Positions 28,928 to 31,152 of a DNA stretch of 64,000 nt are shown here, piece after piece. Below the pieces are notes generated by a model that worked only from the letters and a program-made list of their open reading frames with translations, had not been told where the DNA came from and did not search any database. This stretch comes from Candidatus Hermodarchaeota archaeon (lineage in GTDB: Archaea > Asgardarchaeota > Thorarchaeia > Thorarchaeales > Thorarchaeaceae), in the NCBI GenBank assembly GCA_048885865.1, contig JBHLLF010000001.1, positions 64,001-128,000 of the forward strand. The letters run 5' to 3'. Numbering within the stretch: the stretch's first letter is position 1; each line of letters opens with the position of its first letter. Made by a program: the position numbers and the translations under genes.

Positions 28928-29872
28928 ATGAGATGTATAGGAGTTGCAGGTGGCATCTCTCTCTACGCTCATGATGATTCCTATCTCTCGTACTTCAATA
29001 GCCCTTTCATTGGTCACCGAAGGTTCAGTTCAATTGATGTGTATCCTGCAGATGGTGCGTGGGACGGTCCGGCGTTTTCACCTATTGATGGGAAAGTCAC
29101 CCAGGTAAGAACTTTGAAGATGGGAAAGAAGAAGGCCTTCCCAACTTCTTCTCGCGACTATGCGATTGCAATCGCACCAGAGGATGTGAAGGACACAGTT
29201 GTTCGGATTCTACATTGCATACCCAGAGTTTCCAAAGGTGATGTTGTTTCCAAAGGGGACTTCATTGGCAGTCTAATCAGGTCCCGTTACTTCTGCTTTT
29301 GGACTGGCCCCCACTATCATATCGAAGCTATGCATCCTAGGGACTTCATAAGACCATCACAATCCTTTCCAATAATAGCTGAAACTGGAAAGATTAGTAC
29401 CGATTTAGGAGATTCGACCAATCAGTTTGAGTGTGAGGTTATGAAATACACTCCAGATATCTTGGTCTGTGGGTCGCGTGAAATCCCTTCTGCTAGCATG
29501 AATGACTATCACGGACATTTGGCCATAATAGGTGACTCATCCAGCATACTTGACGCTGGAGTCCCCCATTATAATCAGGGAGGATTGTTAGGAAATACGA
29601 GTCCAGAAATTGATTCTGCGGTTCAAGCATTTGGCGTGCCGATCGGTAATGTTTCATCGGTATCTGAATCGTTTGTGCAATTCACAATGGGGAAGAATAT
29701 CATTGTTTCTTTGGAGGGAGAGAATCTCGGCGGAATATCGACGCACCTGTATTCCAATAGCCAGATGATTAATGGCCGTCCGCCGGTCCTCTTGATCCCA
29801 AAAGAACGCAACCAGTATGAAGGAAGGCTATCGGAGGGTGACATTGTCGTTCTCAGTTTAAATGTATTATAA
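28928..29872 (+). CDS. Conserved archaeal hypothetical protein (M23-like hybrid motif)
   Basis: SPFIGH...IDVY, SPIDGKV, ILH, HYHIE. Confidence 0.65.
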   Translation: MRCIGVAGGISLYAHDDSYLSYFNSPFIGHRRFSSIDVYPADGAWDGPAFSPIDGKVTQVRTLKMGKKKAFPTSSRDYAIAIAPEDVKDTVVRILHCIPRVSKGDVVSKGDFIGSLIRSRYFCFWTGPHYHIEAMHPRDFIRPSQSFPIIAETGKISTDLGDSTNQFECEVMKYTPDILVCGSREIPSASMNDYHGHLAIIGDSSSILDAGVPHYNQGGLLGNTSPEIDSAVQAFGVPIGNVSSVSESFVQFTMGKNIIVSLEGENLGGISTHLYSNSQMINGRPPVLLIPKERNQYEGRLSEGDIVVLSLNVL

Positions 29873-29892: not shown

Positions 29893-29930
29893 GAAAAAAA
29901 GGAGGGAGAGGAGCGATAGAACTCCTCTCT
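29893..29930 (-). terminator. Hairpin plus U7 tract downstream of the small secreted peptide gene
   Basis: Minus strand GAGAGGAG-TTCTATCG-CTCCTCTC...TTTTTTT. Confidence 0.6.
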
Positions 29931-29969
29931 GATGAGAGTTGTTCCTAAAAAGCGGAACACCATAATGCC

Positions 29970-30239
29970 TCAATGGAAATCATATGCGCAGTAATCGCAC
30001 CCGCCAGCTCCATCCACGACGTCATATGATCCGAGACCGTCATCCTCATGAATTTCGATTGGCACTCTGCGATGTATTTCCTTTGGCACTGGAACTCGAT
30101 CAACAGTGATGCCGTCCCTGCTTGAGTCGTCTTGATACGGTGTCGCTGACAATGCGTTCACTGCACTAGCAAACACAGCCGCAGCTGACATAGCAAAAAG
30201 GACGACTACACCTGCTGCCAATAAGGTCCTCTTATTCAA
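29970..30239 (-). CDS. Small secreted/membrane-anchored peptide with C-terminal CDYC...H
   Basis: Signal-like MNKR plus hydrophobic stretch; AGAGGAG RBS; terminator follows. Confidence 0.7.
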   Translation of the reverse strand: MNKRTLLAAGVVVLFAMSAAAVFASAVNALSATPYQDDSSRDGITVDRVPVPKEIHRRVPIEIHEDDGLGSYDVVDGAGGCDYCAYDFH

Positions 30240-30268
30240 CTATACCTACTCTCCTCTATGGTACGGTG

Positions 30269-30393
30269 CATGGTCAAACTCGTGCCGCTGTCAAGAACGC
30301 TGCCAGATGTCTTGAGAGATTCTGAAAACAAATTCCTGCAAGGGGAATGGGCCATTGAGGTCCAAGTTTCTAAAGACATTGAATTTAACCACG
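30269..30393 (-). ncRNA. Putative structured RNA / 5' leader (~125 nt) closed by a 13-bp terminal stem
   Basis: CGUGGUUAAAUUC pairs with GAGUUUGACCAUG (3 G-U pairs, minus strand only); inner AUGUCUU/AAGACAU; starts at the predicted TSS. Confidence 0.5.
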
Positions 30394-30430
30394 TAATAGT
30401 ATTACAAGTTACATTATATATACTTTTCGC
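30393..30430 (-). promoter_or_regulatory. BRE-TATA promoter 1 with palindromic operator GTAATAGTATTAC (30393-30405)
   Basis: Minus strand CGAAAAG-TATATATAA then GTAAC..GTAATACTATTAC. Confidence 0.65.
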
Positions 30431-30489
30431 TTACAATAATTATATTGCTTATTATCGTTGTATGATTTGAATTACTCTATCAAGTCATT

Positions 30490-30572
30490 AAAATTCAGGC
30501 GGAATCCCCAAGCACGGCACTTCGAGAACGCAAGGAAGGCAAGAACAATGTCCTTTCGCTTGAAGATTCCGT
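30490..30572 (-). ncRNA. Putative ~80-nt sRNA closed by a 14-bp stem
   Basis: CGGAAUCUUCAAGC pairs with GCUUGGGGAUUCCG (2 G-U pairs on minus strand), followed by UUUU; no convincing ORF. Confidence 0.5.
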
Positions 30573-30610
30573 GTGATAGTATTACGTGTTACATTATATA
30601 ATTCTTTCGG
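30573..30610 (-). promoter_or_regulatory. BRE-TATA promoter 2 with operator GTGATAGTATTAC (30573-30585)
   Basis: Near copy of promoter 1, exactly 180 bp away. Confidence 0.65.
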
Positions 30611-30753
30611 ATGTCAGAATTGGTTGTCTATTAGGTGTCTAGCAGTCTTCTTAGGACATTAATATCTGAAGCGTTTTCAAATGGGTGATCCTTCTTTTTG
30701 CTGAGAATGTCTATTGAATTGTGGAGGCAGCCACCGCTAGGGTATAAAATACA

Positions 30754-30796
30754 GTAATAGTGTTACGTAGAAAGATATATTAGACTATAATACTAC
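30754..30796 (+). promoter_or_regulatory. Operator copy 3 GTAATAGTGTTAC (30754-30766) next to the promoter of the RHH gene
   Basis: One mismatch to the palindrome, followed by GAAAG-ATATATTA and a half-site TAATACTAC. Confidence 0.55.
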
Positions 30797-30819
30797 AATC
30801 AGCTGGAAAAGGTGATTAT

Positions 30820-31152
30820 ATGGGCGAAAAGAAAGGCTCATCGAAAGCCGCTGCACAGCTCAGCCTGAGGGAGGAACTTCTTGGTCAGCTCTCAGCAGAA
30901 GAGTTCGGTCTGAAAAAGCGTGAGATATCTGTAATGACCAGGATGAGTTCGGATGTTGTTGAGATTCTTGACGCTCTTGTTGAGCTAGAGATATTCAAGA
31001 GTCGTTCTGAAGCAGTTGCAGCCTTCGTTGAAAAGTCGATTGCATCTCGCGGCGATCTGTTCGATGAGATAAAGGTCCAGGCCAAAGAGATTACTCGTAT
31101 GCGTGAGACCGCAAAGCGGCTCGCTTTCAAAGCAATGCAGGATAAGAGCTAG
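30820..31152 (+). CDS. Ribbon-helix-helix (CopG/Arc/MetJ-like) transcriptional regulator
   Basis: ISVMTRM strand, VVEILDALVE, FKSRSEAV helix pattern; GGTGA RBS. Confidence 0.82.
   Translation: MGEKKGSSKAAAQLSLREELLGQLSAEEFGLKKREISVMTRMSSDVVEILDALVELEIFKSRSEAVAAFVEKSIASRGDLFDEIKVQAKEITRMRETAKRLAFKAMQDKS

Follow-up and report, generated by a model that had tools for sequence, protein, structure and literature searches.

We describe here a locus within a 64,000-nucleotide stretch of an Asgard archaeal genome (positions 64,001 to 128,000 of contig JBHLLF010000001.1, Candidatus Hermodarchaeota archaeon, Thorarchaeales; hereafter the window), where a 13-bp palindrome, GTAATA(G/C)TATTAC, occurs in three copies next to the gene for a 110-aa protein of putative ribbon-helix-helix (RHH) type. 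The palindrome is very likely the operator of this adjacent RHH-type protein, and the locus is, as far as its sequence tells, one node in a small regulon made up mostly of very small proteins. Two of the copies adjoin predicted minus-strand promoters, P1 and P2, which face a structured leader (RNA1) of a gene for a secreted mini-protein and a candidate small non-coding RNA (sRNA; RNA2), respectively. RHH-type regulator, palindromic operators, RNA2, RNA1-peptide leader and regulon together form what we regard as probably the best explanation of the whole, held with some reserve. What emerges is an RHH-type regulon specific to its lineage of Asgard archaea, together with a new candidate small RNA, ordinary in its logic and new in its players; literature searches for Asgard archaea returned neither a set of transcription factor, operator and regulon nor a regulatory small RNA. 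With a small protein, a 13-bp box, few promoters and a structured RNA, the locus is a compact, sequence-defined circuit that is testable in vitro without culture.

The palindrome, its predicted promoters and the adjacent regulator gene

The three copies of the palindrome named in an earlier, sequence-only reading of this DNA were found again with the same coordinates and spacing. Operator 1 (GTAATAGTATTAC, 30393-30405) is followed at successive distances of 180 and 181 bp by the one-mismatch copies operator 2 (30573-30585) and operator 3 (GTAATAGTGTTAC, 30754-30766), all three being strand-neutral. When up to two mismatches were allowed the window contained 7 strand-matches at 4 places, with 0.55 expected, a number reached by none of 100 shuffles. 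Operator 1 is kept in three related genomes (G015, G002, G014) and in two metagenome cassettes (L060, L061), and operator 2 in all seven RNA2-bearing sequences. The repeated operator-like palindromes are real, conserved and well defined.

Copies 1 and 2 belong to a common 37-nt module (81% identity) in which the palindrome is followed by 2 nt, GTTAC, ATTATATA and then CTTTTCG or TCTTTCG. Read on the minus strand the module consists of a CGAAA(A)G word resembling a transcription factor B recognition element (BRE), an 8-10-nt TATA tract, GTAAC, 2 nt and the palindrome, so that the order BRE, TATA, operator proposed earlier was recovered at both copies. P1 (30408-30429) comprises the BRE-like CGAAAAG (30429-30423), the TATA tract TATATATAAT (30422-30413) and the extra half-site GTAAC (30412-30408); P2 (30588-30609) comprises the BRE-like CGAAAGA, the TATA tract ATTATATAAT and the half-site GTAAC. 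The distance from TATA to the transcription start is usually about 25 nt in archaea, from which we infer that transcripts would begin at about 30392 (P1) and 30572 (P2), at the 5' arms of the two stems described below. The arrangement of TATA, 7-9 nt and operator is found at six sites in the genome.

The plus-strand promoter of the regulator gene (30770-30782), predicted from its sequence and conservation, carries the BRE-like word GAAAG and the TATA tract ATATATTA. Its TATA-to-box distance is the same as at P1 and P2, but here the BRE-like word lies between TATA and box, and therefore transcription runs away from the box. Operator 3 stands 3 nt before GAAAG, and this layout is kept in relatives, in agreement with the proposal that the third operator adjoins the promoter of the divergent RHH gene. 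Transcription of the gene is predicted to start near 30805, in front of a Shine-Dalgarno (SD) sequence, GGTGA, at 30811-30815. In six of the related loci (L013-L016, L020, L021) another TATA-like tract (TTTATATA) precedes the auto-operator by 8-9 nt, so that TATA tracts flank the box on both sides; these could be two promoters or serve a divergent transcript.

For comparison, 29 loci with regulator homologues were taken from 61 related genomes. The exact box GTAATA(G/C)TATTAC is present directly upstream of regulator orthologues in seven genera (g1, g4, g5, g7, g8, g9, g16), the proteins being 56-97% identical, and the upstream order is constant, the box being followed after about 3 nt by a GAAAG-like word and then by a TATA-like tract. 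This phylogenetic footprint, with the box in a fixed position upstream of the orthologues, is what chiefly speaks for the protein as reader of the box, and it bears out the proposed role of the palindrome as operator of the RHH-type protein. That the factor would bind a short palindrome in its own promoter, as RHH factors often do, follows by comparative inference only. In view of the regular spacing of about 180 bp and the identity of copies 1 and 2 over 37 nt, one might see in the module what is left of a mobile element, or a duplication that arose locally and recently, without regulatory role. We give this idea next to no credence, as the three units do not align beyond the promoter, unrelated genes on further contigs and in further species are preceded by this module as well, the box is kept across genera, and neither terminal repeats nor target duplications were observed.

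The genome encodes at least three paralogues of the regulator. One of them, on contig C81, is 54% identical and has the same box in a divergent promoter, and a divergent one on contig C7 (48% identical) has VPVVARM as putative DNA-reading strand and lacks the 13-mer box. Instead, the reader of the boxes might be some other factor, such as a further RHH protein recognising the word GTAWTAC, the adjacent gene being a mere target. The 13-mer does contain GTAWTAC, and both the number of paralogues and a GTAWTAC-rich stretch on contig C62 would suit such a reader; however, the box travels with this gene family in a fixed position through seven genera, and the C7 paralogue with its differing strand has no such box, so that we consider another reader unlikely and the adjacent protein the preferred one. 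This C7 paralogue, the third of the regulator (C7:87350-88170), lies just downstream of a gene whose 132-aa membrane-protein product carries the motif GEIYLIDWTYS, and different repeats (CGTATAC.../CGTATCGATAC) are found there in place of the 13-mer. This membrane-protein family also adjoins RHH homologues or boxes at three related loci (L014, L015, L034).

The regulator gene itself (30820-31152, plus strand) encodes a conserved N-terminal segment, a putative strand VSVMTRM, the helices DVVEILDALVELEIF and SRSEAVAAFVEK and a C-terminal helix. We found 314 homologues, nearly all from Candidatus Thorarchaeota, which are named 'hypothetical' or, by the Joint Genome Institute (JGI), 'Arc/MetJ-type RHH regulator'. 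The Pfam model RHH_1 matches the protein with an expectation value (E) of 0.024 and 15 bits, below the cut-off of 20.5, and gives sub-threshold matches in 17 of 57 sampled family members (best E 0.004); the NCBIfam model CdrS matches one member (E 0.005). Among the neighbours in the ESM Atlas are clusters of RHH_1, RHH_8 and MetJ, but only at 0.76-0.79. Each of the 57 sampled members aligns with the C-terminal part of NCBIfam's AbmR model (best E 3e-6), yet the scores stay far short of the cut-off: against the equivalog NF058631 the regulator scores 22.5 bits versus a cut-off of 160 bits, with only positions 102-163 of 167 aligned. Judged by these matches the 110-aa protein is a relative of the AbmR C-terminal domain and not an AbmR. 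Of the RHH identity asserted at first, the sub-threshold RHH_1 and AbmR C-terminal matches stand, but no match rises above threshold; the protein is called RHH-type here, kin to the AbmR C-terminal domain and with a putative fold.

Two candidate structured minus-strand RNAs and a secreted mini-protein

RNA2, a candidate sRNA of about 83 nt (30490-30572, minus strand), combines an outer 14-bp helix (30558-30571/30500-30513), an inner hairpin AAGGAC/GUUCUU, an invariant core GCCUUCCUUGCGUUCUCGAAGUGC and a U-rich tail. The stem at its predicted 5' end (CGGAAUCUUCAAGC/GCUUGGGGAUUCCG) folds as described before, with a minimum free energy of -30.1 kcal/mol (z -3.1), and the UUUU said to follow it is present. 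An alignment (A4) of seven sequences, from five species and two metagenome cassettes, showed all 98 cells of the outer helix paired. Six of the 14 pairs vary, two of them with double changes running C-G, U-G, U-A, and 12 cells are G-U pairs that would be A-C mismatches on the plus strand. The case for the structure is that every observed change keeps the pairing, and does so on the minus strand only. The C/U-rich interior, including GCCUUCCUUGCGUUCUCGAAGUGC, has a single substitution in the seven sequences, and the stretch from P2 through the stem forms a conserved island between diverged flanks in the five species. One-nucleotide indels in the RNA2 region of relatives break the reading frames and exclude coding, in line with the earlier remark that RNA2 has no convincing open reading frame (ORF).

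P1 and P2 point in the same direction 180 bp apart, and the U-tract after RNA2 is short and, in three species (G002, G014, G010), weak and degenerate (UUCUU). Both observations would fit tandem promoters of one gene, RNA2 being the distal part of a long peptide-mRNA leader. The genome of G010, however, retains P2, operator 2 and RNA2 although P1, RNA1 and the peptide gene are gone from it, and this speaks for RNA2 as an independent unit; moreover, the stretch from RNA2 to P1 is poorly conserved whereas RNA2 is nearly invariant. We rate the tandem arrangement as rather unlikely and treat RNA2 as a separate transcript.

RNA2 is present in a single copy in the genome. A covariance-model search of 86 family genomes returned only the five source species, and a metagenome scan with the 20-nt core of RNA2 returned the two complete cassettes (L060, L061) and four chance matches in GC-rich bacterial ORFs. 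RNA2 is found in one sub-clade of Thorarchaeota only. A scan of the Rfam 15 covariance models, with E values up to 10, gave no match for RNA1 or RNA2. Among 4618 crude start regions, those of the regulon itself did not stand out by their duplex energies with RNA2 (percentiles 0.31 and 0.39), and the top duplex match, the translation-initiation region of an OPT oligopeptide transporter (C13:42790), was rejected since its complementarity is lost in four RNA2-bearing relatives. Separately, an uninterrupted 15-nt complement (GAACGCAAGGAAGGC) of the invariant core of RNA2 was noticed inside an apparent ORF at C35:9342 (plus strand), where about 0.1 such matches are expected by chance.

RNA1 is a predicted structured 5' leader of about 150 nt (30240-30392, minus strand) of the peptide mRNA; it is assigned as a leader because no U-tract separates it from the SD sequence and the TTG start, into which it continues. 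Its closing helix (30381-30392/30270-30281) leaves an invariant AUAGAGGAGAGUAG, the SD region, outside the structure. The closing stem of 12-13 bp folds as the sequence-only reading had it, and its support comes from relatives, not from energy, the whole leader being unexceptional in this respect (z -1.0). Among the six aligned sequences (A6) all 72 cells of the helix are paired; 6 of the 12 pairs vary, one with a compensatory change, and the covariation score was reached by 2 of 500 shuffles. Here 18 G-U cells would be A-C mismatches on the plus strand, so that in both RNAs pair-preserving, strand-specific substitutions uphold the view that these are structured minus-strand transcripts. A 10-mer common to both, GCGUUCU(C/U)GA, is indeed present, but is not kept in the RNA1 orthologues and was discarded as a conserved motif and treated as chance. 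Likewise, RNA1 and RNA2 were rejected as paralogues, the three 180-bp units having no homology beyond the promoter.

Stems and conservation could also be features of the DNA or of coding sequence, such as a micro-ORF or a plus-strand terminator, rather than of functional RNAs. A 47-aa plus-strand ORF and a 17-codon minus-strand ORF do overlap RNA2, and its plus strand folds too (z -2.9). Yet the one-nucleotide indels break both frames, the core is invariant at all codon positions, no plus-strand gene ends at RNA2, and the G-U cells of both RNAs would be lost on that strand. We judge such an origin of the stems to be highly improbable and retain the two RNAs.

The gene behind RNA1 (29970-30239, minus strand) encodes an 89-aa protein with a TTG start, a Sec-type signal peptide recognised by eye and an internal RRVPIEIH repeat. 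Its 15 homologues are all from Thorarchaeota and all unnamed, and Pfam and NCBIfam contain no match for it. The family keeps the signal peptide, the motifs SATPY-DDS and TVDR, the RRVPIEIH repeat and a C-terminus of the form GG-x-D-x-C-x-Y-D-[FI]-H. The locus had been credited with a secreted CxxC peptide; a signal-peptide ORF ending GGCDYCAYDFH is present, but CxxC occurs in only 5 of the 15 homologues, the second Cys in 13. A 24-nt tandem repeat at 30048-30090 encodes the duplicated (V)P(K/I)EIHRR, and a third copy is seen in the homologue P0134. The 3' side of the gene (29893-29969, minus strand) is terminator-like, with a hairpin GAGAGGAG-N8-CUCCUCUC followed by seven U, read directly from the sequence. 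Upstream, on the plus strand at 28928-29872, lies a gene for a 314-aa protein with a weak Peptidase_M23 match (E 0.005), which is syntenic with the cassette in close relatives.

The regulon outside the window

Across the genus, 13 of 17 genomes contain the exact box, at 30 sites in total, compared with none for the reversed control. In this genome four more sites outside the window have the layout TATA, 7-9 nt, box, gene. Two of them precede a tandem gene pair encoding basic peptides, 47 and 34 aa long (C1:186213 and C1:186479), one precedes a gene for a 56-aa protein (C13:70287), and one lies at a gene for an ARPP-1 family protein (C81:3939; PF20208, E 4e-43) that is divergent from the gene of the paralogous regulator. 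In relatives the box recurs at the same target families, namely the 47-aa basic peptide, the ARPP-1 protein and the 56-aa protein. The sequence-only reading had pictured a closed local module of regulator, sRNA, leader and peptide; this picture has to be given up, the locus being one of several in a genome-wide regulon that also takes in small basic peptides, the ARPP-1 protein, the 56-aa protein and a paralogous regulator. One-mismatch boxes at C17:21494 and C20:166 lack TATA context, match the control rate and were set aside as chance.

Some features of these loci may be recorded. At C1:186153-186700, on the same contig as the window, the two tandem paralogous peptides are very basic (MTNKKNRKWW..., MTDRINRNQSKRIG...), and either gene comes with a TATA, a GTAAT and an exact box to itself and with a short hairpin in its 5' leader; genes and box are kept in G015, G014 and G002. 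At C81:2931-4683 the divergent genes of the ARPP-1 family protein (332 aa) and the RHH-type regulator (126 aa) have one exact box in common; next to come is an ORF of 96 aa that is Cys-rich and zinc-ribbon-like. Six other genomes of the genus contain shorter genes of ARPP-1 type with a box. The densest GTAWTAC stretches of the genome, which has 172 such words altogether, are C62:2016-13327 (9 in 11 kb) and C12:835-5904 (6 in 5 kb).

The proposed circuit and comparison with known systems

In the mechanism that we propose the 110-aa protein would be a stand-alone transcription factor of RHH type, from a family spread across Thorarchaeota, and would bind GTAATA(G/C)TATTAC, probably cooperatively with the neighbouring GTAAY half-site. 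Bound at the P1 and P2 boxes it would keep RNA polymerase from being recruited, so that both RNA2 and the RNA1-peptide mRNA would be repressed. At the regulator gene itself, where the box abuts the BRE, the protein would autoregulate and would touch the side of transcription factor B (TFB) and BRE, with either repression or activation as the outcome. RNA2 would act as an independent structured non-coding RNA whose C/U-rich interior is probably the working surface, for target pairing or protein binding. The RNA1 stem would close the 5' end and leave the SD sequence free, and for this reason an effect on stability or the binding of a factor is more likely than masking of the ribosome site. Speculatively, the 5'-closing stems may protect the RNAs or present their interiors.

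Several points weigh against this circuit. The case for it consists of comparative evidence only. The RHH assignment leans on sub-threshold matches, a PDB sequence search with the family profile returned no relative of the regulator, and the AlphaFold2 monomer is an all-helical, uninformative model with a predicted template modelling score (pTM) of 0.33 and predicted local distance difference test (pLDDT) values of 53-75 over the putative strand. The overlapping GTAWTAC word may be read by other RHH proteins of these genomes. As to RNA2, the covariation score was reached by 74 of 500 shuffles, which is not significant with seven close relatives, the changes in the helix are mostly one-sided transitions, and given the weak U-tract P2 could partly read through towards P1. 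Finally, a combination of k-mer complementarity, duplex energies and a check in relatives did not find a conserved RNA2 target.

A more far-reaching variant is a peptide signalling circuit, in which the secreted 89-aa protein is a pro-protein cut after the GG junction to the conserved C-terminal nonapeptide [CILV]-D-x-C-x-Y-D-[FI]-H, and the signal feeds back on the AbmR-like regulator, which would control RNA2 and perhaps, like AbmR, bind and stabilise it. We regard this variant as improbable and prefer the circuit without peptide signalling.

With the RHH autorepressors CopG, Arc and MetJ the proposed circuit has in common an operator of about 13 bp that is (pseudo)palindromic and overlaps the promoter, predicted autoregulation, and extra half-sites suggestive of cooperative dimers. 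It differs from them in its archaeal BRE/TATA promoter and in the sub-threshold RHH_1 matches, and the regulator serves neither in plasmid copy control nor as an antitoxin. SurR and TrmBL1 are examples of single factors with sites downstream of TATA at some promoters, where they repress, and upstream of BRE/TATA at others. The boxes described here likewise lie on both sides of promoters (P1 and P2 versus the regulator's own gene); such position-dependent regulators are, however, winged-helix or TrmB proteins, unlike the RHH-type regulator.

Archaeal repressors that act from the box position seen at P1 and P2 block polymerase recruitment, as is documented for the RHH cell-cycle repressor aCcr1 of Sulfolobales and their viruses (PMC9976878), and its motif, AGTATTA (PMC9976892), is contained exactly in GTAATAGTATTAC, a shared 7-mer that could be coincidence. 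The 13-mer bearing it stands in an aCcr1-like position not only at P1 and P2 but also at four further promoters. Behind the boxes lie genes of another kind, for small peptides, ARPP-1, RNA2 and regulators, with none of the cell-division genes cdvA and ESCRT-III among them (mismatch sites were surveyed in part), and the regulator has double the length, with additional segments at its N- and C-termini. Sequence kinship to aCcr1 or SIRV2 gp21 was considered and dismissed, none being detectable beyond the generic RHH helix: hhalign of the family alignment (A3) against SIRV2 gp21 gave a probability of 0.6% over 16 columns, and tblastn against phage records gave no archaeal-virus match.

The closest working analogue of the locus appears to be AbmR (Rv1265) of Mycobacterium tuberculosis with the divergent sRNA Mcr11, where an sRNA gene lies beside the gene of an autoregulated factor and is controlled from the same intergenic region (PMC6282994; bioRxiv 10.1101/2021.09.03.458936). 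The CopG-like DNA-binding part at the C-terminus of AbmR, modelled on CopG (PMC6282994), is the one that matches the sampled regulator family; both operators are AT-rich and repeated, and AbmR binding is cooperative. The two systems differ in that only the last ~60 residues match (22 bits versus 160) and the ATP-binding N-terminal part is absent here, that AbmR activates mcr11 whereas the box position here predicts repression, and that a bacterium is compared with an Asgard archaeon. Moreover, AbmR reads four tandem ATGN5 repeats, its published operator being 4x ATGN5 + ATTA(A) repeats, whereas the regulator described here would read a 13-bp palindrome. The overlap of the box with the motif of the Sulfolobales RHH protein and the kinship of the regulator with the DNA-binding end of AbmR together hint at an old, widely reused pairing of RHH proteins with AT-rich boxes.

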